Assembly: GCA_038064835.1 (NCBI GenBank)
Contig: JBBTSD010000001.1
Coordinates: forward strand, 234,361 to 298,360
Direction: 5' to 3'
From: Patescibacteria group bacterium
Lineage (GTDB): Bacteria > Patescibacteriota > Minisyncoccia > Phycocordibacterales > UBA2100
DNA length: 64,000 nucleotides
Part shown: positions 321 through 56,464 of the stretch, piece by piece
How positions within the stretch are numbered: position 1 is the stretch's first letter
Layout of the letters: every line of letters begins with the position of its first letter
Made by a program: the position numbers and the translations under genes
The notes under the pieces: model-generated
Databases searched by the model: none
Seen by the model: the letters and a program-made list of their open reading frames with translations, nothing else
What the model was told of the DNA's origin: nothing

Positions 321-349
321 TTGCATTCCTTGTCAGGGTGTTGTATAAT
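321..349 (+). promoter_or_regulatory. Sigma70-like promoter TTGCAT-17bp-TATAAT, probably producing a leaderless mRNA starting about 7 nt before ATG 357
   Basis: TTGCAT at 321-326, 17-bp spacer, TATAAT at 344-349. The first ATG of the downstream ORF follows at 357 with no room for an RBS. Confidence 0.45.
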
Positions 350-356
350 TGAGGAT

Positions 357-857: not shown

Positions 858-873
858 CAAAAAGAGGACACAG

Positions 874-896
874 AAAAACCCCGTACGGGGTTTTTC
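874..896 (+). terminator. Rho-independent terminator
   Basis: aaaaaccccgtacggggttttt: GC stem flanked by A and T tracts, immediately after the stop at 857. Confidence 0.7.
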
Positions 897-964
897 TGTT
901 TCCGTGACTCGGATTGTTTCAAGAGGCATGGATTCATGGCGTAATAATGGTACAGTGCAACGCT

Positions 965-2428
965 ATGGCTCGCGCAGAATCACTACTGTCATTCGAAGGA
1001 GTCTCCTTTGAATACGGTCCCAACAAGCCGATACTCGATACGGTGGATTTTTCTGTACGCCGCGGCGCCAAGGTCACTTGCATGGGGCAAAACGGTGCGG
1101 GCAAGAGCACTATTTTTCAGTTGGTAACAGGGGCGCTTTCTCCCGAGAGTGGCAAGATCAATATTCCGCACGGCCTCTCGATTGCGGTATCGCGACAGGT
1201 CATTTCTCGCGACCAGCTTGATCTGACGGTGCGTGATTTTTTCCGCGCTTGCTTCGACACACCCATCTACGATATCGACCCACGCATCGACGAGATGCTC
1301 GAGGTGGTGCATCTGCGTGGACACGAAAAAATCCATGACCGCATCATGCGATCATTTTCGGGTGGGCAACAGGCACGACTGCTTCTCGCTTCCGCCCTGA
1401 TTCAAAACCCAGATTTGCTATTACTTGACGAGCCAACTAACAACTTAGATAAGGCCGGCATTGAGCACCTTACAGATTTTTTGGTCCACTATTCAAAAAC
1501 AGTCATGGTGATTTCGCACGACGCGGAATTTCTAAATGCCTTTAGCAACGGTGTGCTGTATTTGGATGTACGCACTCGCAAGGTCGAGCAATACTCAGGA
1601 AACTATCACGATGCAATCAAGGAAATCGCGGCGCGCATCGAGAAGGAGAATCGCAAAAACGCTCAGCTTGCGAAAGAGATTCAAGAAAACAAAGACAAGG
1701 CAAACTTTTTTGCGAACAAAGGAGGGCAGATGCGTCTGGTCGCCAAACGCATGCGCACCAAGGCGGAAGAGCTAGAGGAAGAAAAGGTTGATGTGCGCAA
1801 AGAGGACAAGACAATCCGTCCCTTTACCTTTCCCGTGCAAGAACGCCTTGGCGGGAATGTGGTCACCTTTTCTTCGTACACAGTGATCGGCAAGAAGAAC
1901 AAGCCGGTGACAAAGAAATTCAATCTGGTGCTTCGTCGTGGTGTGCGCCTGTTGTTGCGCGGACCAAACGGTATTGGCAAGACTACTCTGCTTGAGACAA
2001 TCGCCAAGCGAACAGCTGTGGGTATCGAAGTTCCACCTGAAGTAAAAATTGGGTATTATCGGCAGGATTTTTCGACACTCAATTTTGACGAGACAGTGAT
2101 GAGTGCACTGATGCACGCGTCACCAAAAAAAGATGAGGAATTTGTGCGTAGTCTAGCCGCAGGTTTTCTGGTCACGGGTGAAATGATGCGCACCAAAATC
2201 GGGAATCTTTCCGAGGGGCAAAAAGGACTGGTGGCGTTTGCGCGCCTGGTGCTCGAGCGACCAGGACTTCTCATTCTGGACGAGCCGACCAACCACATCA
2301 ATTTTCGACACATTCCCGAGATTGCCAAAGCGCTTGATCAGTTTGAAGGAGTAATGATTTTAGTGAGCCATGTCCCTGATTTTGTCGCACAAATTCGTAT
2401 TGATGAAGTGTTGGACTTGGAAAGATAA
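965..2428 (+). CDS. ABC-F family ATPase (two ABC domains; translation-associated EttA/Uup-like)
   Basis: Two Walker A motifs (GQNGAGKST, GPNGIGKTT). Two ABC signatures (LSGGQQARL, LSEGQKGLV). Two Walker B (LLLLDEPTN, LLILDEPTN) with a charged linker between them. No transmembrane domain. Track ORF starts at TTG 914; ATG 965 gives MARAESLL. Confidence 0.85.
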   Translation: MARAESLLSFEGVSFEYGPNKPILDTVDFSVRRGAKVTCMGQNGAGKSTIFQLVTGALSPESGKINIPHGLSIAVSRQVISRDQLDLTVRDFFRACFDTPIYDIDPRIDEMLEVVHLRGHEKIHDRIMRSFSGGQQARLLLASALIQNPDLLLLDEPTNNLDKAGIEHLTDFLVHYSKTVMVISHDAEFLNAFSNGVLYLDVRTRKVEQYSGNYHDAIKEIAARIEKENRKNAQLAKEIQENKDKANFFANKGGQMRLVAKRMRTKAEELEEEKVDVRKEDKTIRPFTFPVQERLGGNVVTFSSYTVIGKKNKPVTKKFNLVLRRGVRLLLRGPNGIGKTTLLETIAKRTAVGIEVPPEVKIGYYRQDFSTLNFDETVMSALMHASPKKDEEFVRSLAAGFLVTGEMMRTKIGNLSEGQKGLVAFARLVLERPGLLILDEPTNHINFRHIPEIAKALDQFEGVMILVSHVPDFVAQIRIDEVLDLER

Positions 2429-2467
2429 CCAACTGGCCCCTGCCCCATTTCGTGCTATAAATGGTGC

Positions 2468-4222
2468 ATGAAAAATATCCTTGCGTTCCTATTGCTTGTT
2501 GCGGTGCTTGCTTCAGCAGTACCTGTTCCGGCTTTTGCGCTTACTAAAAAAATCGAGACTGCGGGGAGCCCGTACACAATTGTCGACAAACGCGACTACC
2601 CGATTATTTTCATTCACGGTGCGGCGGGTGCCGAGCTTGAAAAGAACGGTGCAAGCTTGTGGCCAGGGAACCTGGGTGGGGTAGTAAACGATTCGGCGGC
2701 GGCCCAGTTGGCACTCAATAGCGATGGCAAGACAGACTGTTGTGGCACCATCGACGCGCCACGAATCATGAAGTATGCATCGGGTTATGATTCAGTGGGC
2801 GCAGGGTTTATCTCTGTCTACGCCGGGTTCTACACCTACATGGAAGAGCAGGGTTTTGGGTATGAGAAGAAACACGACGGAAAAGTGTTTTACGATTTTG
2901 TGTACGACTGGCGCGAAGACAATCGCACTTGGACGAAAGATTTGGACAAGAAAGTAGACCAAGTACTAAAGGAGACCGGTGCGGAAAAAGTGTACCTCAT
3001 TGGTCACTCGATGGGTGGCTTGCAGGCGCGCTTGTATATGAAAGACGCAGGGCGTGCCAAAAAAGTTGCAGGAGTCATCTTCCTTGGCACCCCACACCAC
3101 GGGGCACCCCAGGTGTATTGGGCATATACCTATGGCTACAATTTCGGGAACCCAAAAGTAGGCATTACGCGCATGTGGGAGGTGATGAAGAACTGGCCAG
3201 CAGGATACCAGTTGCTCCCCGATTATCCGACTGTCCAGGACGAAAGCGGAAAATTCTGGACGCTAGATCAGATGTACAGCGGAGGCACTTTCTACAGTGA
3301 GCAAGAATATTCGCACAAAATCGATGGCGCGATGCAGAGAAAAGACTATTTGATGACATCCGGTCTTCCGAATACGCGTTTTGCAAAAGATGCTGTTGAG
3401 TTCCATAAATATCTCGGCGATAGTGTCGACAAATATCCGGGAGTGAAATATGTGCACATTGCTGGCACCGGACAAAAAACTCTGCAGTATCTCGAGGCAA
3501 CGATGGTGAATCGTCCAGGCTTTGACCTGCCGATTCTCACAATGAAGCGCATCGAAAATACCCATGGTGATGGCACAGTGGCAGCGGCGGGGGCGAAAAT
3601 CGAAGGAGTCGATGAGTATCTGACAGTTGTCGGGGAACACGCGGCGCTTCCAGGGATTCCCGAGGTCACCGGGCATATTACGCGTCTGCGCGAATCATGG
3701 AATGACGAAAAGGCACGCGTGGCTCTTGCACGAAAAGTGAAAGCGTATGCAGAAAACCGTTTGCCACAGCTCGAAGCCATGCGAAGCGCCGGCCTTTCGA
3801 GTGGAGCAAAGCCTGCTGACAACGAAACATCACTCGTCAGTATTTTGTTCCGAGCGCTTTTCTTTGGTGCTCCAGACGAGCAAAAGATTAAACAGCGCGA
3901 TGATCTGCGCCGCTATGTGGCAAAGATATTCGAAGACGGAAATGTGAATGTAAAGATTTTGGCGAGTGATGGTCGTTCCGAAGAAGATTTGTTTGCGGTA
4001 ATTCGCGGATTCAAGGTGATAGAGACAGGTACAGGTATCGCGTCACCACAACGCGCCTTGGTAACCGTGAAAGACTATGCCACATTCGAGGCGCTGACGA
4101 ATGGAAATATGGATGCGCGCGACGCGCTCAAGTCTGGTGCCATTAGCCTTTCAGGGGGCGGCCTTATTGATGGTCTCAAAACAAAAGTCTATAGCTGGTG
4201 GCTGAAGTATGGAGCAAAGTAG
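2468..4222 (+). CDS. Secreted alpha/beta-hydrolase, lipase/esterase-like (GHSMGG nucleophile elbow)
   Basis: N-terminal signal peptide MKNILAFLLLVAVLASAVPVPAFA. IGHSMGG lipase motif, then FLGTPHHGAP, as in class-2 lipase / PGAP1 / LCAT-like folds. Confidence 0.7.
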   Translation: MKNILAFLLLVAVLASAVPVPAFALTKKIETAGSPYTIVDKRDYPIIFIHGAAGAELEKNGASLWPGNLGGVVNDSAAAQLALNSDGKTDCCGTIDAPRIMKYASGYDSVGAGFISVYAGFYTYMEEQGFGYEKKHDGKVFYDFVYDWREDNRTWTKDLDKKVDQVLKETGAEKVYLIGHSMGGLQARLYMKDAGRAKKVAGVIFLGTPHHGAPQVYWAYTYGYNFGNPKVGITRMWEVMKNWPAGYQLLPDYPTVQDESGKFWTLDQMYSGGTFYSEQEYSHKIDGAMQRKDYLMTSGLPNTRFAKDAVEFHKYLGDSVDKYPGVKYVHIAGTGQKTLQYLEATMVNRPGFDLPILTMKRIENTHGDGTVAAAGAKIEGVDEYLTVVGEHAALPGIPEVTGHITRLRESWNDEKARVALARKVKAYAENRLPQLEAMRSAGLSSGAKPADNETSLVSILFRALFFGAPDEQKIKQRDDLRRYVAKIFEDGNVNVKILASDGRSEEDLFAVIRGFKVIETGTGIASPQRALVTVKDYATFEALTNGNMDARDALKSGAISLSGGGLIDGLKTKVYSWWLKYGAK

Positions 4223-4224
4223 GT

Positions 4225-4411
4225 CCCTAAGGGCACTTCCATAAATAACACCATCATCTTTCGCCCACTGCATCACCGTATACAACCCTTGCTCTGTCGC
4301 GAAATATCTCGGCGTACTTATAGTACGACTCGATATTTCACTCGGTCGCAAGGGCCGTCTACGGTGCGCATTAAGCGAAATCTGAAGCAGTTATTTACGG
4401 AAGTGCCCTAA
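4225..4411. mobile_element. MITE-like element, family A, copy 1 (about 187 bp, 22-bp terminal inverted repeats)
   Basis: About 99% identical to 40423..40609 (one internal mismatch). The ends ttagggcacttccataaataac and gttatttacggaagtgccctaa are inverted complements. There is an internal palindrome around gaaatatctcgg...cgactcgatatttc. Confidence 0.65.
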
Positions 4412-4560
4412 GAAGCTGTCTAACTTCAGTGGGCTACTGAAGAGCTTGAATTGGTCTACACGGAGCGCGGAGGAGTGCTCAAGCTCATGTGCGTCAATAG
4501 TTTTCGCCAGAGCACAACAGAGCAGGGGTCACAAGCCTCTGCTTTTGCTATAATTGAGTC

Positions 4561-4911
4561 ATGACTATCGATGAGCTGACCGAATTCATCGACGAACAAG
4601 ACGCGCTCTTCCGCACGGTAAAAGATACTCACCAGACTGAACGGGAACGGACTTTTTCTCGCACGATTAAAATGGCAGAAGAATTTGGAGAGCTCTGCAA
4701 CGAAGTTCTTGCGTCGGTGGGAGATCAGCGTAAAGAGAAGCTAGATGCCCACGATGGACAGAGTCTTCGCGATGAGTTTGCCGATGTCATCATCACCACA
4801 TTCCTGCTTGCAAAATCTATGCGGGTGGATGTGATGGGCGCACTAGATCACAAGGTGAAAAAAATTCGCGAAAAACATAACAAGCAACTTCTTGCGGATA
4901 GACAGCTATGA
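4561..4911 (+). CDS. MazG-like nucleoside triphosphate pyrophosphohydrolase (small all-alpha type)
   Basis: EEFGELCNEV and EFADVII match the helix pair of MazG/HisE-like NTP-PPases at about 116 aa. There is a 4-bp ATGA overlap with the next gene. Confidence 0.55.
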   Translation: MTIDELTEFIDEQDALFRTVKDTHQTERERTFSRTIKMAEEFGELCNEVLASVGDQRKEKLDAHDGQSLRDEFADVIITTFLLAKSMRVDVMGALDHKVKKIREKHNKQLLADRQL

Positions 4912-5207
4912 AAAAGAGTTATCGTATGAAAGCGAAAATATGGCTGTATCCAGGCGACACGGCGTGGCATTTTGCGAGTGTTGGCGAGAAGCATGCCGCT
5001 GTTATAAAAAAAGCGCACGGCGCACACGCGCGAGGATTTGGCTCACTACCAGTGCGCGCGACGGTCGGGAAAACTTCCTGGGACACTTCGATTTTCCCAG
5101 ACAAAAAAAGTGGCACCTACCTTTTGCCACTCAAGTTGGCAATTCGCCGCAAGGAGGGGATTGCAGACGGTGACATTATTTTGCTGACCCTTGAAGTACG
5201 CGTGTAA
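4908..5207 (+). CDS. DUF1905-family protein
   Basis: WHF..V, GSLPVRATVGKTSWDTSIFP and LPLK..IRRKEGI..GD match the DUF1905 signature. Confidence 0.55.
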   Translation: MKKSYRMKAKIWLYPGDTAWHFASVGEKHAAVIKKAHGAHARGFGSLPVRATVGKTSWDTSIFPDKKSGTYLLPLKLAIRRKEGIADGDIILLTLEVRV

Positions 5208-5254
5208 CCCCCCGCTACCTACTGTGTACGAGTGCGGGTGTATACTGGCTTTGT

Positions 5255-5650
5255 ATGAAAGGATATACAGGAAACATCGAGACAGACACACGGGCCAATG
5301 CCGATTTTCGGCGCGTACTTTATACGGGGAGACATAGCCAGCTAGTTCTCATGAATCTGCGGCCCGGCGAAGAAATTGGTCTCGAGGTGCATACTGACAC
5401 AGATCAATTTTTCAGGTTTGAGACGGGGCAAGGGCAAGTGATTATTGACGAATCTGTGTATGAGGTGGCTGACGGAGTAGCGGTTATTGTGCCTGCAGGC
5501 GCCCAACATAATGTGGTGAATACAGGGGATATAGATTTAAAGTTGTACACCATCTACTCACCGGCTCATCATAAGGACGGTATCGTACGCACAACAAAAG
5601 AAGATGCTGTGGCACAGGATGCGCCGTTTGATGGTGTGACAACTGAGTGA
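5255..5650 (+). CDS. Cupin-domain protein
   Basis: The G(X)5HXH..E and later H pattern (EVHTDTDQFF ... PAGAQHNV) indicates a single cupin barrel. Confidence 0.5.
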   Translation: MKGYTGNIETDTRANADFRRVLYTGRHSQLVLMNLRPGEEIGLEVHTDTDQFFRFETGQGQVIIDESVYEVADGVAVIVPAGAQHNVVNTGDIDLKLYTIYSPAHHKDGIVRTTKEDAVAQDAPFDGVTTE

Positions 5651-5651
5651 T

Positions 5652-5972
5652 ATGAAAAGTGAAATCGAGAAATCAATAGGCACGCTTTTTCAAAAAAAGG
5701 TGTGGCATGAGTTGTGCAAAATTAAAAAGGGTCAGGTGATTACCTACGCCGAGCTTGCGCGGAGGATTGGAAAACCAAAAGCCATTCGCGCAGTGGGAAA
5801 TGCGGTGGGGAAGAATCCTTTGGCGCCAGAAGTACCGTGCCATCGTGTGATACGCACTGATGGAAGTCTGGGCGGATATTCAGGCAAGGGTGGTGTCAAA
5901 ACAAAGTTGGCATTACTAAAAAAGGAGGGAGCTGCTCTCGCGCTCATCAAAAACATCTCCGCCAGAGGATGA
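5652..5972 (+). CDS. ogt: Methylated-DNA-protein-cysteine methyltransferase, C-terminal (active-site) domain only
   Basis: The PCHRV active-site motif has the cysteine present. The helix-turn-helix YAELARRIG and the downstream GGY..G motif are also present. The 106-aa length lacks the N-terminal domain of classical Ogt. Confidence 0.7.
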   Translation: MKSEIEKSIGTLFQKKVWHELCKIKKGQVITYAELARRIGKPKAIRAVGNAVGKNPLAPEVPCHRVIRTDGSLGGYSGKGGVKTKLALLKKEGAALALIKNISARG

Positions 5973-5986
5973 AGAAGAAGTAGAAA

Positions 5987-6012
5987 GGGCCCCACCGAAG
6001 TTGGTGGGGCCC
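5987..6012. terminator. Bidirectional GC hairpin between convergent genes
   Basis: gggccccaccgaagttggtggggccc has an 11-bp stem, but the T-tract is weak. Confidence 0.4.
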
Positions 6013-6038
6013 CTGTCGTCAGTGTCGCGTTGCCGGTA

Positions 6039-6704
6039 TTAGCGGCCCGCCCATCCTGTAGGCACCATGCACCCAGTGCCGACATCCGCCGGGAAGGCGC
6101 TCGGGTCCGGATCGAGGCGGAAACCTCGGCGGATGAGCCCTTCTCGGTCGTCGTATCGGACGATCAGGGTCTGCAGAGTCGAGGGATCGCGGTCGAAGTC
6201 GACCTCGGTCACCTCGTGCCGAGCACGATCGCCGAAGCCGGTGCCGATTCCGCGAGTCGCTCCTTTCGAAGCGCCCATAGACTCGGGCACGCCACCAAAC
6301 CCGCGCGTCACCGCGAATCGCTTGTGCTCGAGGAAGAACGCCGCGCCGATGATGCCGAGGTTGCCCCCGCGCTTCATCTGGGTGGCATACGCCTCGGGTT
6401 GCGACGCGAAGACGAATTTAGCAACCTCGTTGTTGTTGAGGCGCCAACCCGGTATGGTCGTCGTCTTCTGGGCACCGATCACATAGCCGTCGCCGCCGGA
6501 TGAAGCCAGCTTACCATCGATGATCGACAGGCCGTCGACGGCGATGACAGCGAGCGCGCGGTGATTGCTCCGGTTCGAGATGCGAAGCTCGTAGTCGGTG
6601 CTCCGCAGACCTTCGATGAACGGGTCGGCATAGTTGGCGTTGACATACTCACGAGCCGGCTTGCCAGCGACGAGGACGGTCAGTTCGAAATTGGCCTTGA
6701 ACAT
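6039..6704 (-). CDS. Hypothetical protein encoded in a high-GC island (probable horizontal acquisition)
   Basis: 221-aa ORF with ATG start. The local GC is far above the roughly 50% background, with a strong GC3 bias. Long spurious ORFs appear on other frames, as expected for high-GC DNA. Confidence 0.5.
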   Translation of the reverse strand: MFKANFELTVLVAGKPAREYVNANYADPFIEGLRSTDYELRISNRSNHRALAVIAVDGLSIIDGKLASSGGDGYVIGAQKTTTIPGWRLNNNEVAKFVFASQPEAYATQMKRGGNLGIIGAAFFLEHKRFAVTRGFGGVPESMGASKGATRGIGTGFGDRARHEVTEVDFDRDPSTLQTLIVRYDDREGLIRRGFRLDPDPSAFPADVGTGCMVPTGWAGR

Positions 6705-6864
6705 GTGCTTGGCTTCCTTCGTCTGTTTTTTCTCTCGAAGTTACGCCACTCGATCGTCAGAGCTGCGCAATCTTCATTATATACCACATAAATGTTCTTG
6801 TCAAGTTTCAAAGGAAAAACGCCTAACTATGGTATGTTTTCCCGAGATAGAATGGAGGAGAAGT

Positions 6865-7458
6865 ATGGACATTATTCTGGCGACAAGAAATGTCACCAAA
6901 ACCAGGCAGATTCGGGCAATTTTTATAGGCTCGCCCGTCACAGTCTGGTCGCTTGACGATGCGCGGATTCAGGGTGATTTCGTTGAAGACGGCGCCACCC
7001 TCGAAGAGAACGCGCTCAAAAAGGCGTTGTTTGCCTGGAAGCGTTCGGGTGAAAGATGTATGGCAGACGACACTGGTCTATTCATCGATGCGCTTGGTGG
7101 TGAACCAGGAATTCATGCGGCTCGTTGGGCGGGCGAAGGAAAGAATACTGAAGACATAATGCGGTACACACTCAACCGTCTCGAAGATGTGCCGACGGGG
7201 AAGCGACAAGCAACTTTCAAAACCGTGGCCGCATTTGTTGATCTCACGGGTGCTCATTCTTTTTTCACAGGCCAACTGCGCGGAACAATCTTGCGAGAGC
7301 CCCGCGTACCGTGTCAATCCAAGATGCCGTACAGTGGAATTTTTCTGCCCGATGGGCACGACAAGGTATGGGCTGAAATGTCGGTTTCAGAAGAGAATGC
7401 TATCAGTCATCGTGGAAAGGCTTTTTGGCAATTACGGGATAGCTTGATGTGCGAATAA
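6865..7458 (+). CDS. rdgB: Non-canonical purine NTP pyrophosphatase (dITP/XTP), RdgB/HAM1 family
   Basis: Begins MDIILATRN.K..E, consistent with the family. GGAGGAG RBS lies 4 nt before ATG 6865. The track ORF is extended upstream. Confidence 0.8.
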   Translation: MDIILATRNVTKTRQIRAIFIGSPVTVWSLDDARIQGDFVEDGATLEENALKKALFAWKRSGERCMADDTGLFIDALGGEPGIHAARWAGEGKNTEDIMRYTLNRLEDVPTGKRQATFKTVAAFVDLTGAHSFFTGQLRGTILREPRVPCQSKMPYSGIFLPDGHDKVWAEMSVSEENAISHRGKAFWQLRDSLMCE

Positions 7459-7460
7459 TC

Positions 7461-7488
7461 AGCGGCCGTTATATGGCCGCTTTTTTAT
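7461..7488 (+). terminator. Rho-independent terminator
   Basis: agcggccgttatatggccgc followed by ttttttat. Confidence 0.7.
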
Positions 7489-7501
7489 ACCCGTATTTTT
7501 C

Positions 7502-7666
7502 CTAGTACCCCATTCATAAAATTTTGTCCATAAAACCGCATAATCGTGGCTGCGGCTCGGCAAAAATTCCTTGCCAATGCCCCTGCATTGCCTCGGTATT
7601 TTTACCTTCGCCTCGCTCACGATTCTCCGGTTTTCTCAGGACAAAATTTTACGAACGTGGCACTAG
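7502..7666. mobile_element. MITE-like element, family B, copy 1 (about 165 bp)
   Basis: The first 88 bp are near-identical to 39652..39739. The ends ctagtaccccattcataaaattttgtcc and ggacaaaattttacgaacgtggcactag are degenerate inverted complements. Confidence 0.6.
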
Positions 7667-7697
7667 ACGCCCGCGCGGTGTGCGGTATAGTTTTCGC

Positions 7698-8573
7698 ATG
7701 ATACATAAGTCTTGGATTCTGGGAGGGGTCACTGCACTGTCACTGTTACTTGTGACCAGTGTTCACGCGGCACCAAAAACTGAGTTGCATATAAAAGCTG
7801 ATGGCACCATCGTCGCTACTAATGTAGTTGTTCGGCAAAAATCTGGATCTAATCTTTTCTCGCGCATGACTTGGGGAGAGGCTGTCTATGCGCGCCTGGT
7901 TGTTTTGACGAAAGACACGACAGTGGTAACCAAGGCCTATGGCGAACGCGCGACCAAGGATGATATTCGCGAAGGCGATGTGCTTGATGTGGAGGGCAAG
8001 CTGGTAGGGGCTGACGGATCTATCACTATCGACGCGACGAGTGTGCGCGACCACTCACTACTTAAAGAGTCGAAAGTTATTTCTGGTATTGTAAAAAGTA
8101 TTGACGGTTCGGCACACTCATTCATTCTCCCCAACGCTGAATTCAAAGACACGACAGTTATGGTAACTAGTACCACCACCATTCAGAAAGGTGCCCGTTC
8201 GATCGGCTTTGGCGAACTCACACCTGGGTCAAAAATCATTTCCGTCTCTGGTGTCTACAGCTATCCCACCAATACGCTTTCAGCGATGCATGTAGAAGTG
8301 CACCAAGACAAATTGATTTTCACGCCAAAGAATTTCCAAGGTAAGCTCAAGGAGATTATTGGAACAAGTTTGCCAACTACACTAGTAGTTACCGTGGAAG
8401 GAACCGACTACACCGTGTATCTGTCTGCAACGACTAGTGTTTTGAATGGCGCGAAGGCAAAGACTACCCTCAGTCGGTACGAACTAGGGGACACCGTTCG
8501 TTTCTATGGTGCAATTCGGCCGGTAAATCTATCGGAGATTGACGCAGAAATCGTTCGCGACATCGATTTCTAG
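7698..8573 (+). CDS. Secreted hypothetical protein (signal peptide, beta-rich repeats)
   Basis: Signal peptide MIHKSWILGGVTALSLLLVTSVHA. The track ORF starts inside the MITE; ATG 7698 is used instead. Confidence 0.5.
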   Translation: MIHKSWILGGVTALSLLLVTSVHAAPKTELHIKADGTIVATNVVVRQKSGSNLFSRMTWGEAVYARLVVLTKDTTVVTKAYGERATKDDIREGDVLDVEGKLVGADGSITIDATSVRDHSLLKESKVISGIVKSIDGSAHSFILPNAEFKDTTVMVTSTTTIQKGARSIGFGELTPGSKIISVSGVYSYPTNTLSAMHVEVHQDKLIFTPKNFQGKLKEIIGTSLPTTLVVTVEGTDYTVYLSATTSVLNGAKAKTTLSRYELGDTVRFYGAIRPVNLSEIDAEIVRDIDF

Positions 8574-8631
8574 TACCTATATTCTTCATAAAAATCCTGG
8601 CGTACACGGGAATGATGAGTATAATCCCCGA

Positions 8632-9168
8632 ATGAAAACATATCTTATTGCGGGTGTTATAGCGGTTGTGGTTTTGGGAGGTGGGTGGATGCTGTGGTCG
8701 GGAAGCGATTCGACGACTCCAGAGGCTGAGGTACCGGTCGCTGTAGCAGATACAAATGACACATTGGTAGTCGACGGAAAATTCAACGGATCAATCTTTG
8801 ATTTGGCAAAAAGCGGCAAGTCGTACAAGTGTACCCTGTCACACACCATTCAGGGCGTGACTACAAACGGTACTATCTATGTTTCTGGATCAAATGTCCG
8901 AGGAGATTTTTCGAGCACCGTGCCTGTTGTGGGCACAGTTGAAATGCACATGATTTCTGACGCCGATTTCGTGTACAACTGGAGCTCGATGATGCCGACA
9001 GGTTTTAAGGCAAAGCGAACGGACGGAGGTGTCACTGACGGAGGTGACGCACTGTCCGGACAATCGTTCGATGCGGACATGGTATACGAGTACGACTGTG
9101 TACAGACACCAGCAGACGCATCACTGTTTATTGTCCCTACAGACATCATCTTCAAAACGACAGGCTAA
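8632..9168 (+). CDS. Membrane-anchored hypothetical protein
   Basis: N-terminal TM anchor MKTYLIAGVIAVVVLGGGWMLW. No recognisable domain. Confidence 0.45.
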   Translation: MKTYLIAGVIAVVVLGGGWMLWSGSDSTTPEAEVPVAVADTNDTLVVDGKFNGSIFDLAKSGKSYKCTLSHTIQGVTTNGTIYVSGSNVRGDFSSTVPVVGTVEMHMISDADFVYNWSSMMPTGFKAKRTDGGVTDGGDALSGQSFDADMVYEYDCVQTPADASLFIVPTDIIFKTTG

Positions 9169-9222
9169 GTAATTGTTCATACGACCGCTTGATTTTCAGG
9201 TGGTGTCTGGTAAAGTGTCGCC

Positions 9223-9615
9223 ATGTTAAAGATTCGCTTTCAGCGCACAGGTCGTATCAATGATGCTGCTTTTCGCGTGGTAGTTGTCGAACATACCATG
9301 AGCCCAAAGAGTGGTCGCTTCGTTGAACGCCTTGGATCATATAATCCAAAGACCAAGGTCCATACGATCGATGCTGAACGCGTTACCTACTGGCTTTCAA
9401 AAGGCGCAAAGGCCAGCGACACACTCCACAACCTTCTTTTGAAATCAGGTATTATCAAAGGCAAGAAGATAAACATTCTCCCCAAGCGCAAAATCCTCGC
9501 AAAGATTGAGGCAGAACAAAAGAGTGCAGCCGACAAAGCGGCCGTAGAAGCTGAAAAGACCGCACCAGTCGTCGAGGCTGCCCCTACAGGAGGTGCAACG
9601 CCGGTCGCCGCTTAA
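9223..9615 (+). CDS. rpsP: 30S ribosomal protein S16 (with Ala/Lys-rich C-terminal extension)
   Basis: N-terminus MLKIRFQRTGRINDAAFRVVVVE and GSYNP are the bS16 signature. Confidence 0.85.
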   Translation: MLKIRFQRTGRINDAAFRVVVVEHTMSPKSGRFVERLGSYNPKTKVHTIDAERVTYWLSKGAKASDTLHNLLLKSGIIKGKKINILPKRKILAKIEAEQKSAADKAAVEAEKTAPVVEAAPTGGATPVAA

Positions 9616-9709
9616 GTGCACACCGCGCTTCCGATTGACCGTGCCTCTAAAAGCGAGTACCATAGAAATACAGGTGCAATAGCACCCCTTACGAGTTAGC
9701 TATATCAGC

Positions 9710-10015
9710 ATGGAACGAGATCAGGAATTTCTTGAGTATGTAGTGAAGGGATTGGTAGACAATCCAGACTCCATTCAGATTACCCGCAAAGTAGACGAGA
9801 TGGGTGTGCTCCTCACGCTCACTGTGCACAAGGACGATATGGGCAAAGTAGTAGGTCGCGCTGGCGCAACAGCCAAGGCGATTCGTACGCTTTTGCGCGT
9901 TGTCGGTATGAAGAACGACGCACGCGTTAACCTAAAAATAAACGAACCAGAAGGTGGAACCCGCGCATTCGAGCAACGAGAAAAGAGCGTTGACGAGGCC
10001 ATTGCCGATTTGTAG
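9710..10015 (+). CDS. KH-domain RNA-binding protein (UPF0109/YlqC-like)
   Basis: VGRAGATAKAIRTLL is a KH GXXG-type motif. The position immediately after rpsP is conserved. Confidence 0.7.
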   Translation: MERDQEFLEYVVKGLVDNPDSIQITRKVDEMGVLLTLTVHKDDMGKVVGRAGATAKAIRTLLRVVGMKNDARVNLKINEPEGGTRAFEQREKSVDEAIADL

Positions 10016-10030
10016 GCAGTGTCGCCTTGA

Positions 10031-10069
10031 GCAACAAGCCGGAGGGCCACAGGCCCTCCGGCTTGTTGC
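10031..10069 (+). terminator. Rho-independent terminator
   Basis: gcaacaagccggagggcc...ggccctccggcttgttgc (18-bp stem) followed by atatttt. Confidence 0.7.
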
Positions 10070-10124
10070 ATATTTTACATTTCGTGATATAAAGATTTCG
10101 GTCCGGACAAACAAAGGGAAGAAA

Positions 10125-10526
10125 ATGCCAGTATCCAGCAAGCCAATGCTCTGCTCGGAAATTAGAGGATATTCTAACGAGGCCGGATGGGCCTTGCTGA
10201 TTCTCTCGAGGCATGGAGTCGTTGCGTCTCAGCTCTCGCATATCATCGTGCTTCGTGATTTTCTGAAGGCATGCGTCGAAAAAGAGACATTACGGCTCAA
10301 TAATATCAATGCCCTCCTAGGGCAAACAAATGCGATTGAGTGGGGTGCGTTAGTTGCGATTCTCGATGAGGTGATTTCGCAGAATGCGAAAAGTCGAAAC
10401 GACATCGAGACCGCCAAGCTGAAGGTCGCGTCGCTCTCGACGGCGATGCACTATGTCGAATCACAGGTGCAGGGATATCGCGCTGGTCTGCAAAGACAAT
10501 ACGACGAACACACACGCAAGTTCTAA
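10125..10526 (+). CDS. Hypothetical protein in the position normally occupied by rimM
   Basis: ATG 10125 with an AGGGAAG RBS. No similarity to RimM motifs could be recognised. Confidence 0.4.
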   Translation: MPVSSKPMLCSEIRGYSNEAGWALLILSRHGVVASQLSHIIVLRDFLKACVEKETLRLNNINALLGQTNAIEWGALVAILDEVISQNAKSRNDIETAKLKVASLSTAMHYVESQVQGYRAGLQRQYDEHTRKF

Positions 10527-10562
10527 ACTATCCGGGCACCGAGTGCCCGTTTTCCATAAGAT

Positions 10563-11201
10563 ATGATCCACTTTCACATTGTCACACTATTTCCCGAATC
10601 AATTGAGCCGTACCTTTCGGCGTCGATTCTAGGGCGCGCACAAGAGAAGAAGCTTATCAAAGTGTCATTTTACAATCCTCGCGACTATACCGATGACAAG
10701 TGGCAACGCGTCGACCGCAAGCCCTATGGCGGTGGACCTGGCATGGTACTTTCCGCTGAACCGTTTTTGCGCGCTGTGAGTGCGGCCTTAAAAGGGCGAA
10801 AGGGCGAGATTGTATTTTTCTCGCCGTCTGGCGAACAGTTTGAGCAGAGCGCCGCAAAAAAATTGGCACAGAAAAAGCATATCGTTTTTATTGCCGGGCA
10901 CTATGAGGGAGTTGATGCTCGTGTGCAAAAAATTCTGAAAGCAAAGCTTGTCTCAGTCGGTCCCTATGTGCTTACGGGTGGCGAGCTTCCTGCGGCAACT
11001 ATGATTGATGCTATTGCGCGCAATATTTCCGGCGTCTTGGGGAAAGAAGAATCTCGCGAAGATGAACGCGTGGCGAGTCCGGAAGTGTATACGCGTCCGG
11101 AAATTTTGGTATGGAAAAAGAAAAAGTACAAAGTTCCCCCAGTTCTTTTGTCGGGCAATCACGCAAAAATCGAAGAGTGGAAGAAGGGTGTTCGTGGTTG
11201 A
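10563..11201 (+). CDS. trmD: tRNA (guanine37-N1)-methyltransferase
   Basis: VTLFPE, NPRDYT, VDRKPYGGGPGMV and GHYEGVD are TrmD SPOUT motifs. Confidence 0.9.
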   Translation: MIHFHIVTLFPESIEPYLSASILGRAQEKKLIKVSFYNPRDYTDDKWQRVDRKPYGGGPGMVLSAEPFLRAVSAALKGRKGEIVFFSPSGEQFEQSAAKKLAQKKHIVFIAGHYEGVDARVQKILKAKLVSVGPYVLTGGELPAATMIDAIARNISGVLGKEESREDERVASPEVYTRPEILVWKKKKYKVPPVLLSGNHAKIEEWKKGVRG

Positions 11202-11227
11202 CATTTTTAGCTTAGTGCGAGCCCTAA

Positions 11228-11352
11228 GCGCAGGTAGTTCGCCGAGGGCTCGCGGAACCAAAAAGGCATGGTTTGCGAAGCAACTTTTTGGTGAGCGGGA
11301 GCGCGGGTGCCTGCTGGGGCACCCGACGCGTACCTCGCCGAACTACCTGCGC
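11228..11352. repeat. Structured intergenic element: 20-bp inverted repeat (1 mismatch) enclosing nested hairpins
   Basis: gcgcaggtagttcgccgagg at 11228-11247 pairs with cctcgccgaactacctgcgc at 11333-11352. Internal hairpins are ccaaaaag...ctttttgg and gggtgcctgctggggcaccc. Confidence 0.45.
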
Positions 11353-11392
11353 GGCCACAATAGCAAAAGGGGTGCGCGAGATACGCACCCCC

Positions 11393-12493
11393 CTAGATTG
11401 AGAAGAGGATCGGCATCGATACCGTCTTCCCGCGTTTCTTGTCGAACAAAAAGAACGATTGCTGTGGCGGTTCGAACCCAAAGCCTTTGTGAATCGCGAA
11501 CGCGCTATAGCCGATGAGTGATCCATTCCCAGACGCTCGCGGAAGTGGCATGTAGGTATGCAAGTGCCCAAAGACATCCATATGGGCGGGTTGTTCCTTG
11601 TTCCATCCCGCAATAACGCGATTGAGAGGAACAGTGATACCGCCGACGCCGCCATGATACTTGATGGCGTGACCGTGGTGGAAGCGGATGACTTTCCCAT
11701 AGATTGGCACCAGGGTGTGATAGGCATCTTCGATAATGAAACGCACACGGTCCTTGGTCGAAAAGCGCTGAGCAAGTGTGTGATACATCATCCATTCGAG
11801 CGAATTGCCCGTTTCGGTGGCCATGTGGATTTTTGCGGTCGTTCGACCGTGGTTGCCTACCTTACAGATGCAAGTGATGCGTAGCTTGGTGTGATTGAGC
11901 AAGAATTCGATACCTGATTGCAACAGCTCCTGGGCAAAGATTGCCGCGTCGAGCGGAAGCAGAAGAGCCTTTTCACGGTCCTCCTCGCGCAGGACACCAC
12001 TAATGAAATCACCCAAAAGCCCGAGCACAAGCTCTGTAATCACCACATCCTGCTGTTCCTTGCGGGCCAGCCGAGCGATGCGTTCAAAGAACTCGGTCGC
12101 ACGCTTTTTTGCGATCTCGAGGTTATACCTATTGAGTCCGTTCACCGTCGAGGGCTTCACTTCCTCCTCGATATGCCAGTCTGAAGCGATAGCAAACGCA
12201 GTTGCTTCGCTGTCGCGTTGAGATGCGCGAGGCTCAATCTTGAATGCCGACACGCCGGTCTTGAGTGCAAGAGCGGCCGTTAGCTCTTCCTCGAGGCGTT
12301 CGTTTGCCTGGAGGACATGCTTGTACTTCTTTGAGAGAGTACCTTTTTCGAGAGACAGTCGACCAAGTCGTTTGTCGCTCTCAATGGCTTGCTCGGTTGC
12401 TACCAGGTCTTCTTGGGTAGCTTGTGCTTTTGAGAGTTTCTTTACCACCGGGGCAGTGCCCGCATTTTTTAAGCCAGTCTTCCTACGCGTCAT
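11393..12493 (-). CDS. Calcineurin-like metallophosphoesterase with lysine-rich coiled-coil N-terminus
   Basis: All five metallophosphoesterase motifs are present (DWH, GDFISG, GNHG, HHGH, GHLH). The track start is GTG 12502; the first ATG is 12493. The hairpin ggggtgcgcgagatacgcaccccc lies downstream on the minus strand. Confidence 0.7.
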   Translation of the reverse strand: MTRRKTGLKNAGTAPVVKKLSKAQATQEDLVATEQAIESDKRLGRLSLEKGTLSKKYKHVLQANERLEEELTAALALKTGVSAFKIEPRASQRDSEATAFAIASDWHIEEEVKPSTVNGLNRYNLEIAKKRATEFFERIARLARKEQQDVVITELVLGLLGDFISGVLREEDREKALLLPLDAAIFAQELLQSGIEFLLNHTKLRITCICKVGNHGRTTAKIHMATETGNSLEWMMYHTLAQRFSTKDRVRFIIEDAYHTLVPIYGKVIRFHHGHAIKYHGGVGGITVPLNRVIAGWNKEQPAHMDVFGHLHTYMPLPRASGNGSLIGYSAFAIHKGFGFEPPQQSFFLFDKKRGKTVSMPILFSI

Positions 12494-13069: not shown

Positions 13070-13086
13070 TAGTTTCAATATAAGAA

Positions 13087-51584: not shown

Positions 51585-51854
51585 CGATCTCTCCTTTCCT
51601 TCATTGTGTTTCAACTTGGACCAGCTCAGAGAGCTAGCTGTCGGTATTATATCATATACACATAGAAAAGCAATCTATAGGACAGTAAAGGACATCGTGT
51701 CCTTTACATGCTGGTGCAAGGATACCACCCGAAAAAAAGGAGTTCCCACATCAAAGAACAGTAATCGGCACAAGTCCATTACTTTACGAGGATGTGCGTG
51801 GTACTGTTGCCCATATTTTAGTAATCGCCGTTATTAATACAGAAATTATTTATA

Positions 51855-54800
51855 TGTTCGTGCGCAATCATCAAGGTGGAAAAAAGGGGTGGATGCAAGT
51901 GGCCCATAGCGCAAAGAAAGGCTTATCAGTTTTTGCAATCGTTGCTCTCGTTGTGATGAGCGTTCCTACCAGCGTTGTGCTTGCCGCGATTAGTTTTGGC
52001 TCCGTTGCTTCCGCAGCAAATGAATCAAGTCCTGGTAGCACTGACGACATAACAATTACTAAGCCAGCGTCCACCGTTTCTGGCGATTTTCTTGTCGCCG
52101 GGATTACCATCAATGGTGGTGATGAGGTGGATATCAACTCTGTCCCGAGTGACTGGGTCCTCATAGAACGCACAGATAATGACGACGATGTGATGTTGGC
52201 GACCTATTACAAATTTGCAGGTGGTTCTGAACCAGCCTCCTATACTTGGTCTTTTGACCGTGACGACAGCGGTGATGTACGCGCTGCGGGTGGTATTATA
52301 AGATACACGGGAGTACACACATCCTCTCCAATAGACGAAGAAGCGGAGAATGAGGGTGGGGACGATGAGCTCGATGCCCCCTCGGTAGATACAGACTATG
52401 CGAATGACATGGTCGTTGTATTCTATGCCCAAGATGACAACCGGGTGCATTCGACACCTTCGGGCACGACAGCTCGCTTTGATGCGGTCAACCCGGATAG
52501 TTCTGGCCCTCGTGTTTCTTCGGCAGATTTTGTCCAAGCGAGCGCAGGAGCAACTGGCGTCAAGACTGCGGAGATTGATGGCAACGAAGATTGGATTGCC
52601 CAAACAGTCGCGCTTCGCATGGCCCCGACCGCGTCAATCACCATTGTGAAAGAGGCGACTCCTGAACACTCGCAAAATTTTGAGTTCTCCACTTCAGGCG
52701 AAGGTCTTTCCGATTTTCTCCTTGACGACGATGCCGACGAAACGCTTTCAAACTCCGTTGTGTTCGACGAACTTGAGGCCGGAGTCTACTCAATCACAGA
52801 AGATGTAGTTGCTGGATGGACACAAACGAGTGCTGTTTGCTCTGACGGGAGCCTCGTTTCAGCCATAGATCTTTCTGAAGACGAGGACATCACATGTACA
52901 TTTGCTAACACTAAGCTCAGCTCAATCACTATCGTGAAGGACACAGTGCCGAATGACGCGCAAGATTTCGCGTTCAGCACCACAGGCACAGGTCTATCCG
53001 CCTTCTCGCTGGATGACGATGCCGACGGCACGCTCTCAAACACGAAGGTGTTTAGCGACCTCGTCGCAGGCGAGTACACCGTGGCAGAAATGACGGTCGC
53101 AGGTTTCGATCTCACCGGCCTTTCCTGCAGTGATGGAAGCGCGGTGGATATAGCAACTGGAACCTCTACGATCAGCCTCGCTGTTGGCGAGGATGTAACC
53201 TGTACCTACACAAACACCAAACGAGCAACATTCCAGATGGTGAAGTACACCGATCCAGCGGTTGGATCCTACGAATTCACTCTTGGCGATGGTGAACTTG
53301 AGCAAGATGGTTTCCCCATGACGCACACATTCACTCCAGCGGGTGAGTGGGGAGTGCTCAGTAATCTTTTGCCAGGTTCCTACAGCCTGAGCGAGACTAT
53401 TCTCGAACTTCCTGAAGAGAACGAGTATCCATCGTGGGAGCGCAACGCATCGTGTAACGGTATCTTTTCTGACCCATCTGGTTCAGTCGAAGGTGAAGGC
53501 CTTGCGCTTTCACTTGTCGCCGGAGAGGAGATGAGTTGTATCGTCAACAATACGCAAAATGCAGTTATCTCGGGCAAAAAGTTTGAGGATACTGACGGCC
53601 ATGGCGCAGAAGCTACAGGCTCGACCTTGAGTGGCTGGACAATCACCATCAAAGAAATCGTGGCGGACATTCCAGAGACTGAAGAAATTGACGAGAGCGA
53701 GGGAACCTATACTAATTCAAACAACACCAACGAGAGTGGCGACTACCTCTTCTTGGTTCCTCCTGGTACCTATCGTGTATGCGAAAGTCCAGAGCCATCC
53801 TGGTACCAATCGTTCCCAACCAGCAATTACAACTGCAACGATGAAGGATCATCCTACGACAATGGCTACGAGATCACTGTCGAGGCAGGTGATGTGGTGA
53901 CCGGCAAAGATTTTGGCAATTATCAACGCGGCACGATTGCTGGCGTGAAGTGGCATGATGCCAACGCAAACGGCACTGTCGAGGATGGAGAGAACGGTCT
54001 CGAAGGGTGGACTATCAATCTCTTAAAAGACCTTGGCGGGGGTTTTGAGTGGGTTGCATCTGCTGTCACTGACTCTGCAGGTGTCTACGAATTTTCAGGT
54101 GAAGGAGCACTTGATCCAGGAACTTACCAGCTTGAAGAGGTACAGCAAGGCGGATGGGTGCAGACATACCCAACCGATCCAACTACCCACACCACCACGC
54201 TCTCATCTGGAGGCTCGAATGTGAACAAGAACTTCGGAAATGTGGGAGATGCAACCATCTCCGGACAAAAGTGGAATGATGAGGACAACAACAGCGAATG
54301 GGATGAAGGCGAAGATGTGGTTACAGGCGATTCATTCACCTTTACGCTCCTACGCGTCGTAGGCGAAGGTGAGCCAGAGTTTGTCATCGCGACCACAACG
54401 ACAACAGGCTTTTACCGATTCATCAACTTGCTTCCAGGAACCTACATCGTTCTTGAGAACTCTGCAGAAGGTTGGATGCAAACATCCCCAACAGATCAAG
54501 GTGGTCACACAGTGACAGTTGGAGCAAACGAAGATTCTACCGACAATGATTTCGGCAACATCGAAGTTATTGAGCTCTATGGCTACAAGTGGAACGATTT
54601 AGACAAGAACGGTATCTGGTACAACGAAGAAGAAGGTGACGATGAGGAGAGTTATGAGCCGGGGATTCAGGACTGGAAGATTCACGCAACCCCGATAGTG
54701 GCAGAAGGTGGGGAAGTTGCGACGACTACCGATCGCATCGCAAAAATCGCACTCACGGACGAGGAAGGAGAATACGAATTTGAATTTCTTGGAAGTGAAA

Positions 54801-56464
54801 GTGGTTGGTGGCGCATTACCGAAGACAATCACCGCGGATGGACACAGACATATCCAGGTGGTATCGACGATGCCTACCATTACGATGTGTTCATCAGTCC
54901 AGAAGGTGATGGTGATGACTGTGAGGGGCCAGGATGGTGCGAGGGCGGATACTACGATTACAACTTCGGCAACTGGCAGTGGCCACTTATCAATGTGTTC
55001 AAGTGGCGTGATGTGAACCGTGATGGTCTATTCCTCGGCGAAGAAGCATCAACCACAGAGCCAGGCGTATCAGGAACACTGATTGGTGTAGGTCGCACTT
55101 TGCCGATTCCAGAGGAATCTCCAGAAGGGACACCGGTGCCTATCGAATTGGTTGCACTTGGTCTCACTGGTAATAATGGCTGGGCGCACATTCCGGTGCC
55201 ACAACAAGGAGATTATGTTGTGTTCGAAGCCGACCATCAATTCTGGGACAAGATGTTCCCTACAGCAACGCGCACTAATCCGTTCGCTCTCCAAAATCCT
55301 AGTGGACAGACTCCGTTTTACATCGACTCATTCTTCGATGTCTTTGCTGAGTTCGGTGCGCCCGCTCCGTTCCCTGGAGCCCCAACAACACAGTTCCCAG
55401 TGGACTCATTCTTTGACATCTTTGTGGACATGAGTGTTGATGGAACACCGACACCAATTCCAGCCCCCACAGCAGTTGATTCATTCTTCGATATCTTTAC
55501 CGAAGTGACTCCGGAACAGCGTGCAGACTCATTCTTCGACATCTTCGTGGAACTTCCTGAAGGTGTGAGCTTGCCTCCATTCCATCTGGACTCATTCTTC
55601 GATGTGTATGTCGGTCCGCTGTCTGGCGGTGAGGTCGCAAACGGTACAACTGGCGGTGAGTACGGTACTTCACCACTTCGTTTCGGCAACGCATTCACTG
55701 TCGCTTGTTCAGACGGTCTTGATAACGATGGTGATGGCCTGATCGATTACCCAGCTGATCCAGGATGTGGTGGCCCACTTGATGGTGATGAACCGCACAC
55801 TACTGGCAGTACCAGTTCGGGTAGTGGCGGCGGAAGCAATGGCCCTATCAGCGGTAGCTTCGGTGGCTCTAATGGTAATGGCCAGGTTCTCGGCGTATCG
55901 ACATCGACGAATGGTCTACCAGGACTTACGATACCTTCAGGCGAACAGTGCACCGACTACATCACTGAAAACATGGGTCCAAACCGCGTAAACAATCCAG
56001 AACAGGTACGACGCCTCCAGGAGATTCTCTTGCGCGAAGGATTCACTGTAGTAGTGAATGGCGTGTTCGACGCGGAAACGCTTGCGGCGGTGAAAGCATT
56101 CCAACTCAAGTACGCGGCAGACATCCTTGCACCGTGGGGTCTCACACAACCGACAGGTTTTGTGTACCTTACGACCAAGAAAAAGCTGAACGAGGTATTC
56201 TGTGGTGTGACAAGAACACTTTCCCCAGCCGAGCAAGCTATTATTGATGGCTTCCGCAGTGGGCAAGGTGGTGGAAATACCGGCGGTGGCGCAGGTGGCA
56301 ACAGTGCTCCTGGTACGCCAACCCCGTCGACTTCTCCGGCTGACACAAACGATGACGCACCAACAGACAATTCGCAGGTAGGTGCGGCAGCAGCGGCAAC
56401 CGACGATACCAAGACCGACAGCAAAGGATTCTGGGGCAAACTCCGTGGATTCTTTGGTCTTTAA
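51855..56464 (+). CDS. Giant surface protein: signal anchor, multiple Cna-B/SdrD-B-like domains, DSFFD[IV]F tandem repeats, C-terminal peptidoglycan-binding domain
   Basis: Repeated modules carry TxxxDxxAGWTQT and EGWxQTYP. DSFFD[IV][FY] occurs six times between 55320 and 55610. PG_binding_1-like NPEQVRRLQEILLREGF...AVKAFQ. Gly-rich tail. The start is uncertain (track GTG 51794; ATGs at 51855 and 51893). Confidence 0.75.

Follow-up and report, generated by a model that had tools for sequence, protein, structure and literature searches.

Phage 'morons', a concept of Hendrix and colleagues, are reportedly autonomous promoter-gene-terminator units inserted between phage genes, and they tend to be described as richer in AT than the sequence around them, or simply as different from it. 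In the framework of Lawrence and Ochman, acquired genes of atypical composition are said to undergo amelioration; acquired genes are more often AT-richer than their host. Here we analyzed a stretch of 64,000 nucleotides (nt) of a Patescibacteria genome (GCA_038064835.1, contig JBBTSD010000001.1, positions 234,361 to 298,360; hereafter the window), focusing on a single gene for a 221-aa protein which stands out as an island rich in guanine and cytosine (GC). Like a moron, this gene is single, appears to have its own consensus promoter and terminator, is predicted to be transcribed against its flanks, is compositionally unlike its surroundings and comes from a phage-borne family. Unlike a moron, the unit lies in a bacterial chromosome among house-keeping genes and not inside a prophage and, unlike the usual moron, it is much GC-richer than its surroundings. 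It resembles ameliorating acquired genes in its atypical GC, third-codon-position GC (GC3), codons and tetranucleotides, in the patchy distribution of its family and in the behavior of its relatives, in which GC3 nears the host first. It differs from typical acquired genes in being a lone gene without mobility genes, tRNA or repeats, and GC-richer than its host. A third described system touches the phage relatives of the gene. MoxR-vWA chaperone-cochaperone pairs are known from jumbo phages, where a role in virion assembly has been proposed, and from archaeal viruses (PMC7824862). Like them, 11 viral loci of the family carry a VWA protein and four carry an AAA+ ATPase; unlike them, the ATPases match classic AAA (PF00004) and not MoxR models, the VWA partner is without the peptidase fusion described there, and the window copy is without either partner.

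The best explanation of the whole, to which we assign a probability of about 0.7, is that a single-gene unit from a GC-rich phage or mobile pool was recently acquired horizontally and came to lie between native repair and house-cleaning genes. The evidence that one single gene was acquired horizontally is good, and the event was probably recent.

Composition of the island

The window has an overall GC content of 0.5055, while the open reading frame (ORF) of the 221-aa protein (666 nt) has 0.631. Sliding windows of 666 nt across the stretch (mean GC 0.506, standard deviation 0.021) reach their maximum of 0.638 at start 5991, about 6 standard deviations above the mean, and the tetranucleotide L1 distance in windows of 700 nt has its window-wide peak at 6001-6700 (z = 6.5). 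GC at the three codon positions (GC1/GC2/GC3) is 0.64/0.49/0.77, against a GC3 of 0.52 in the surroundings and of at most 0.64 in every other plausible gene of the window. Compared with 15 neighboring ORFs, the difference in GC3 (dGC3) is +0.25 (z = 3.8) and the excess at the first two positions (GC1+2) is +0.06. The latter is explained by an amino-acid content rich in glycine, alanine, arginine and proline (GARP, 0.36 vs. 0.275), which does not account for GC3. Isoleucine and phenylalanine are encoded by ATC and TTC in 92% of cases each, and GCA, CCA, GTA, TTA, TTG, AGA, AGG and ATT are never used. The synonymous chi2 per codon is 0.563, ranking first of 49 genes (others: mean 0.196, standard deviation 0.107, maximum 0.477). 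The log-likelihood of the codons under pooled usage did not flag the gene (z = -0.2); this statistic is insensitive because the codon usage of the host is nearly flat, and it was replaced by chi2 per codon. The rise in GC runs from the terminator hairpin (5985-6014) to the ATG (6704), and the intergenic stretch 6705-6864 upstream of the gene has a GC of 0.42.

A first-pass annotation made from the sequence had described a high-GC island at 5985-6710, a strong GC3 bias and a composition shift coinciding with the ORF plus its terminator hairpin. All three descriptions agree with these values, and the GC3-rich codon run that it quoted was found at about 6149-6213. The gene is the extreme of the window in each of the measures that it had proposed (windowed GC, GC3 and tetranucleotides), and a codon usage within the normal range of the genome, which would have spoken for a native gene, is at odds with the highest chi2 among the 49 genes. 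The second tetranucleotide outlier of the window (54900-56000, z = 3.0-3.8) lies inside a 1,556-aa ORF (51794..56464, plus strand) and is probably a repetitive or compositionally unusual domain.

Distribution of the family and its nearest relatives

The family is mainly phage-borne, patchily distributed, very large and uncharacterized. A first homolog search gave 52 homologs at E <= 1e-3 (best non-self identity 47%), and a profile built from 36 members matched 5,897 representatives of clusters at 50% identity with E <= 1e-3, 2,561 of them with E <= 1e-30. A metagenome scan with the single protein as query returned only two distant loci. Scans of IMG/VR and of 185,579 species genomes were each made with a single peptide pattern, and their counts are therefore lower bounds: at least 50 loci were found in IMG/VR, many on contigs of 70-600 kb and some on contigs of 133-607 kb, and at least eight in the species genomes, belonging to Patescibacteria, Obscuribacterales, Planctomycetota and one binned phage. 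The latter (L017, JALOAT010000003.1) is labeled as a Gammaproteobacteria metagenome-assembled genome (MAG) in GTDB and shares its length of 144,978 nt, match coordinates and gene GC with the IMG/VR contig L040; apparently, L017 is a phage genome that ended up in a bacterial MAG during binning. Three isolated phages carry the gene as a 'hypothetical protein', namely RHph_I1_18 (171 kb), Atu_ph07 (490 kb) and Phosso (469 kb), with 31% identity to the 221-aa protein for the best of them. The surroundings of the members P0013, P0024 and P0041 are phage-like, with portal, integrase, T4 RNA ligase and NAD-salvage genes and runs of small ORFs. Among the matches listed in two family searches, the named carriers were Patescibacteria lineages and Melainabacteria/Obscuribacterales only; the genome scan added Planctomycetota (Phycisphaerae, Gemmataceae), whose copies are 33-36% identical to the 221-aa protein. 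A plasmid origin was rejected: no plasmid DNA matched the island, and plasmid and chromid protein records yielded only 'hypothetical proteins' with the N-terminal domain alone, in Burkholderia and enterobacterial replicons.

The nearest-relative group comprises eight loci, namely the window, L012 (Levyibacteriota), L013 (Moraniibacteriota), the metagenome contigs L005, L075 and L076, and L015 and L016 (Obscuribacterales). The relatives share at most 50% identity with the 221-aa protein. They are short-linker forms (221-244 aa, vs. 233-337 aa in viral contigs) and solo genes at unrelated chromosomal sites (DnaE/ProRS; P-type ATPase/ABC-F; RelB/YafQ; Vault/MVP homolog/AcrB; S41 peptidase/histidine kinase), in Patescibacteria or Obscuribacterales where the host is named. 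They formed a clade in a first neighbor-joining tree; with more taxa and bootstrapping its support was about 12% and the Obscuribacterales copies moved, so that the idea of a 'cellular GC-island clade' was dropped and the nearest relatives are defined here by distance, with no claim of monophyly. In all eight loci the GC of the gene exceeds that of the host, by +0.07 to +0.23, and each time it is over the coding sequence that GC rises. GC3 was compared with that of neighboring ORFs at 47 loci. The eight have a mean dGC3 of +0.235, against +0.010 (standard deviation 0.076, 17 positive) in the 39 others, which are mostly viral (Mann-Whitney p = 9e-5); phage and Planctomycetota copies match the composition of their surroundings from 26% to 65% GC.

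Some of these loci deserve mention in their own right. In L012, the window's nearest relative, from a Levyibacteriota MAG, a tRNA gene (340-412), a tyrosine recombinase/integrase (941-1804) and a RadC-like JAB protein (2990-3706) lie just upstream of the GC-rich gene, within 2-3 kb, and the region has the look of an integrated element. The Obscuribacterales contigs carry a 12-tRNA array about 2 kb upstream of the family gene (L015:1-1147; about 5400-6500 in L016), L016 is compositionally heterogeneous, and this region could be phage-derived or otherwise mobile. Since the DNA of L015 and L016 is about 95% identical, both were counted as one lineage, and the idea of comparing them to see whether high GC persists over long times was dropped. 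L005, a contig of 38% GC that also encodes AcrB, has at 4363-6918, two genes upstream of the family gene, a bacterial homolog (851 aa) of the major vault protein of eukaryotes (MVP; Vault_3, MVP_shoulder); the intervening 234-aa gene (7013-7717) is without a Pfam match.

Source and recency of the acquisition

The GC of the source was estimated from Muto-Osawa and Lawrence-Ochman regressions of codon-position GC on genomic GC; as a control, three of four viral copies returned the GC of their own contig within about 5 points at both positions, and L033 was off by 7-9. For the 221-aa gene the implied source has 59.5% GC by GC1 and 64.6% by GC3, compared with 50.5% in the host. As both positions point the same way, little amelioration seems to have taken place, and L012 and L075 present the same pattern. 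In L005, L013 and L076, whose hosts have 31-38% GC, GC3 implies 39-46%, near the host, while GC1 still implies 48-57%; dGC3 is 0.00 in L076 and +0.10 in L013. The relatives can thus be read as a graded amelioration series in which GC3 nears the host before GC1, which argues against a force maintaining GC3. The horizontal acquisition proposed in the first-pass annotation is in line with the sharp compositional outlier, the patchy and mostly phage-borne family and the unrelated sites of the relatives, and the recency that it proposed is probable in view of a source of about 60-65% GC indicated by GC1 and GC3 alike.

We suggest that the gene is a recent arrival in the lineage and that the replicon it came from had a GC content of roughly 60-65%. 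This replicon was most likely a phage, or another kind of mobile element, belonging to an organism with higher GC, and not a sampled cellular genome. No integrase was found among the called genes within 10 kb of either side, a tRNA search of positions 1-16000 gave none, and only short, chance-level direct or att-like repeats flank the gene. A small DNA fragment would therefore have arrived by illegitimate or short-homology recombination. The gene may then be expressed from its predicted strong sigma-70-type promoter, like a phage moron outside any prophage.

Several observations weigh against this reconstruction. Nothing above about 50% identity was found, so that 'recent' is read from composition alone, and the site bears no mobility signature (tRNA, flanking repeats and integrase all not found). 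Bootstrap support for placing the nearest relatives together is weak. Every one of them is GC-richer than its host, which could reflect a pressure intrinsic to the gene instead of repeated transfer. Finally, the available relatives of the neighboring Ham1 gene, beside which an empty orthologous site would be sought, are without synteny. Identity to the closest homologs of Ham1 does not exceed 59-66%, and four of their neighborhoods (L072, L073, L074 and the JGI contig of P0200) share no synteny and have no family gene beside Ham1. Upstream of Ham1 these four have AbiE, a 72-aa ORF after CTP synthase, an adenine glycosylase and a META-domain protein, so that the interval seems to vary among these genomes; the AbiE genes are an AbiEi/AbiEii toxin-antitoxin pair at L072:3296-4612.

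Alternative explanations

The alternative that survives best, while still unlikely, is that a prophage or integrative element decayed here and left the gene as its only remnant, in place of a fragment acquired by itself. The phage-borne family would fit such an origin, as would the integrase, tRNA gene and RadC near the gene in L012 and the moron-like layout of promoter, gene and terminator on the opposite strand (cf. RHph_I1_18). Within at least 10 kb on either side, however, nothing phage-like or compositionally odd besides the island was found, the absence of tRNA, att-like repeats and integrase described above tells equally against a decayed element, and the flanks are house-keeping (MazG-like, cupin, ogt-like, Ham1, S16, TrmD, RpoB).

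That the gene came directly from the chromosome of a cellular organism with high GC, such as the actinobacterial host of an episymbiont named as possible donor in the first-pass annotation, we consider improbable. The implied source of about 60-65% GC and the C/G-ending codons, common in high-GC bacteria, are compatible with it, and the Planctomycetota loci L018 and L019 (Gemmataceae) carry distant family members of native composition. However, the best non-self relative in a collection of 5.8 billion proteins is 47-50% identical, with none above 50%; no named actinobacterium is among the matches listed, and the Planctomycetota copies are no closer than stated above. The family is far commoner in viral contigs, including the high-GC phage contigs L033 (GC 0.65) and L043 (GC 0.63), whose native copies are 42-44% identical to the 221-aa protein and which represent at least as plausible a type of source. 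Moreover, a survey of groundwater Patescibacteria, which includes the MAG of L012 (nzgw402), counted 109 donor events within the phylum and one from Actinomycetota (PMC12455944). The actinobacterial or host donor is thus not sustained; of the two, a phage or mobile pool rich in GC would be the likelier source.

It is just as improbable that the gene is not recent and that an intrinsic force (mRNA or codon selection, or a local mutational bias) holds its GC above that of the host. Such a force is suggested by the excess over host GC in all eight nearest-relative loci, confined to the coding sequence, and by the gene GC tracking host GC. The conserved non-coding sequence upstream of the gene in four relatives is AT-rich though part of the same unit; this carries less weight given that AT-rich promoters and leaders are the rule in most genomes anyway. 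Against it, phage and Planctomycetota members have no GC3 excess (mean dGC3 +0.01), from which it follows that the family has no intrinsic GC bias; the amino-acid content covers GC1+2 and leaves GC3 unexplained; and in AT-rich hosts GC3 is almost equilibrated while GC1 lags, which is the order of amelioration.

An assembly chimera or a contaminating fragment joined to the MAG contig, as a sharp and exactly gene-sized compositional break might suggest, is excluded for practical purposes, since the order Ham1/221-aa gene/ogt-like/cupin was recovered from four sources (the Patescibacteria MAG GCA_964361175.1, whose 331-kb contig encodes an identical hypothetical protein, two Logan runs and the ENA assembly Hain_H51) and the Logan and ENA contigs match the MAG with 100% DNA identity over 2.0-3.1 kb across both junctions; the misassembly that the first-pass annotation had wished to see excluded by read mapping is thereby countered by identical junctions in three further samples.

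Organization of the locus

The features of the locus are presented in Table 1. The 221-aa gene is the sole minus-strand gene amid plus-strand neighbors (MazG-like, DUF1905, cupin, ogt-like, Ham1, S16, KH, TrmD, RpoB), and its immediate flanks correspond to the ogt-domain gene and rdgB recognized in the first-pass annotation. The N-terminus of the protein lines up with the starts of its homologs. Two antisense ORFs on the plus strand (6030-6503 and 6067-6486) were regarded as by-products of the high GC, since it is the minus-strand frame in which sequence conservation and the predicted structure are seen. The terminator-like hairpin has a 12-bp stem (GGGCCCCACC / GGTGGGGCCC) with 9 G-C pairs, a 6-nt loop and a T-rich tail on the minus strand; it forms the GC-rich 3' end of the island and is convergent, common to the 221-aa gene and the ogt-like gene. 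The predicted promoter lies about 72 nt 5' of the ATG and is the sole match of a consensus scan within 5600-7000, where 0.7 were expected in shuffled sequences. The 5' leader has no significant structure (RNA fold z = -1.4), and an Rfam search of the island gave no family at or above the gathering score. Taken together, the island has the predicted layout of an autonomous one-gene transcription unit without mobility scars. A reading as an integron cassette with attC was rejected: there is a consensus promoter of the gene's own, a perfect G+C stem of 10-12 bp with a T-rich tail and no GTTRRRY core, and neither a cassette array nor an integrase was found around the gene. At the 3' end of Ham1 (7450-7517, minus strand), a sub-threshold Rfam match to STnc350 (30.1 bits vs. 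a gathering score of 60, E = 0.005) is most likely a chance match to a terminator-like hairpin.

Table 1. Features of the 221-aa gene locus (window positions) and of the hairpin upstream of the gene in its relatives.
Feature	Position	Strand	Basis or remarks
106-aa MGMT/ogt-type DNA_binding_1 protein with PCHR	5652-5972	+	ORF and domain
Intrinsic-terminator-like hairpin	5985..6014	-	Terminator scan, inverted repeat, sequence
221-aa protein-coding gene	6039..6704	-	ORF call, composition, homologs, AlphaFold2 model
Putative 5' leader	6705..6775	-	About 65-70 nt; Shine-Dalgarno-like GAAGGAAG at 6713-6720
Predicted sigma-70-type promoter TTGACA-17-TATAAT	6776..6804	-	12/12 consensus match
Ham1/RdgB	6865-7458	+	ORF and domain
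Upstream hairpin of relatives	L013:7803-7856; L076:3341-3397; L005:7861-7915; L012:~3905-3960		Conserved in relatives

The window copy is without the long upstream hairpin of several relatives. In four relatives, from different hosts, a conserved hairpin of 19-22 bp (core TTGGTGGC...GCCATCAA) is located 80-110 nt 5' of the family gene. Its fold z-score is -5.5 to -6.5 in L013, L076 and L005; the value of -1.65 for L012 comes from a stretch starting inside the 5' arm, which does not cover the complete hairpin. In L005 two double compensatory changes (T-A to C-G) are present, and the G.U wobbles pair on the sense strand only, pointing to an RNA element within the 5' leader. A 15-nt block (TCTTCGTTACAGCAA) immediately 5' of the hairpin is common to L013 and L076. 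No Rfam family matched the hairpin at or above the gathering score.

Protein family and predicted structure

The 221-aa protein is real, as its homologs, the conservation of two blocks and a confident structure model indicate. The first-pass annotation had recognized no domain in it, and database comparison came to the same result: searches of Pfam, NCBIfam, PHROGs, PADLOC and PDB sequences gave nothing significant, with no family at E <= 1 in PADLOC-DB (anti-phage defense models). In the family alignment, two conserved blocks are joined by a variable and often long linker: the N-terminal one (about 1-126) contains the invariant motif VDGLS, and the C-terminal one has the pattern GTGFG ... YDD..GL..RGI ... 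AFP ... GC.PP.GW. The AlphaFold2 model is all-beta, with a mean predicted local distance difference test (pLDDT) of 88.2, a predicted template modeling score (pTM) of 0.80 and disorder in the linker alone, and the protein is predicted to be a beta-sandwich of novel-looking fold. Foldseek of the model against the PDB gave no solved structure alike (best E = 0.09, template modeling score (TM) below 0.3), and a profile search of the PDB gave chance-level matches to Elf1 only.

Pfam DUF7918 (PF25534), of which no mention was found in the literature searched, is matched by seven of the 36 aligned members through profile positions 2-98 of 228 only; P0046 reaches 35.8 bits (cut-off 27) via its N-terminal 90 residues. 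The 221-aa protein itself has no DUF7918 match at E <= 1, so that its tie to this family, as judged from sequence comparison, would be transitive and partial. Against predicted viral structures (BFVD), Foldseek matched a phage protein with E = 3e-20 and TM = 0.76 and, with E between 1e-10 and 1e-4, proteins of Pithovirus, mimivirids, marseilleviruses, nudiviruses, ISKNV (ORF098), WSSV (wsv390), an ascovirus, a granulovirus (P22.2) and an abalone herpesvirus, all of them uncharacterized. These proteins of eukaryotic large DNA viruses (including Pithovirus W5S497) resemble the model with a query TM-score (TMq) of 0.4-0.62 over about 200 columns; unlike it, some are RING-fused, and sequence identity is only 8-18%. 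The likeness is one between predicted structures, with homology unproven.

Two further variants of the family were observed. In P0034 and P0042, about 40 residues of the linker (residues about 176-218) match T4-type portal models (PF07230, E = 5e-7; phrog_213) and look like a portal-derived insert; as the match is confined to this insert, a portal identity was not taken for the family. Hypothetical proteins of about 240-260 aa in Salmonella (L079:4668-5399, beside speA) and Burkholderia (L080:4614-5393) have the N-terminal family domain only (residues about 25-130 aligned, 33-36% identity), so that well-studied bacteria, too, have the domain in circulation, within another architecture.

Association with VWA and AAA+ proteins in phages

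At the 11 viral loci with a VWA protein (about 205-265 aa), the gene for it and the family gene are co-oriented neighbors separated by -28 to +26 nt. The VWA gene is located directly upstream in 10 loci (L023, L028, L035, L041, L043, L044, L049, L051, L055, which is Atu_ph07, and L068) and directly downstream in one (L046), so that both genes are apparently co-transcribed in one phage subgroup. The partner matches VWA models and has the invariant D..S.., T and D positions typical of a metal ion-dependent adhesion site (MIDAS). A classic AAA+ ATPase is encoded within three genes in four loci (L014, L042, L047 and L049), one of which, L049, has the VWA gene too, and in Atu_ph07 the pair lies beside Hsp20 and a ClpS adaptor. 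In the window, a profile of the VWA partner gave no match at E <= 1 against the six-frame translation, and no second copy of the family is encoded.

As a tentative guess, the protein may be a cytoplasmic, non-catalytic binding module, a partner or client of a VWA-AAA+ remodeling or assembly module in phages. An invariant acidic residue, such as D57 of VDGLS, would be the candidate MIDAS ligand, and the solo copy of the candidate phyla radiation (CPR), without a VWA partner, may be retained as a captured phage accessory gene. This guess is one of guilt by association from distant phage relatives, for a copy that itself lacks the partner and whose model, as noted, resembles no solved structure; the GTGFG loop and the acidic and aromatic invariants could equally fit a small-molecule or catalytic site. 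A bolder reading, which we regard as rather unlikely, is that the short-linker lineage has been captured repeatedly by ultra-small Patescibacteria as a self-expressed cassette, always from GC-richer replicons, and kept to interfere with or replace the phage VWA/AAA+ module. Under repeated capture these replicons would possibly be phages of the GC-richer bacteria hosting the episymbionts, with an anti-phage decoy as an example of a role.

Implications

The island is in kind an ordinary event of horizontal gene transfer, a process already documented in CPR genomes (PMC12455944), and current understanding is not overturned. It provides a clean example, verified by assembly, of a streamlined genome that acquired a single GC-richer gene and has left it essentially unameliorated, accompanied by a graded amelioration series among the relatives of the gene. 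It also draws attention to a very large unannotated family with a confident beta-sandwich model, a recurrent VWA partner in phages, sometimes joined by AAA+, and predicted fold-level relatives in giant viruses and in DNA viruses of arthropods or fish. If repeated capture proved true, the direction and composition of the transfers would be a usable tracer of contact between CPR bacteria, hosts and phages. The GC-rich source, if identifiable in the same aquifer, would give a concrete lead on the DNA-exchange partners of these episymbionts.

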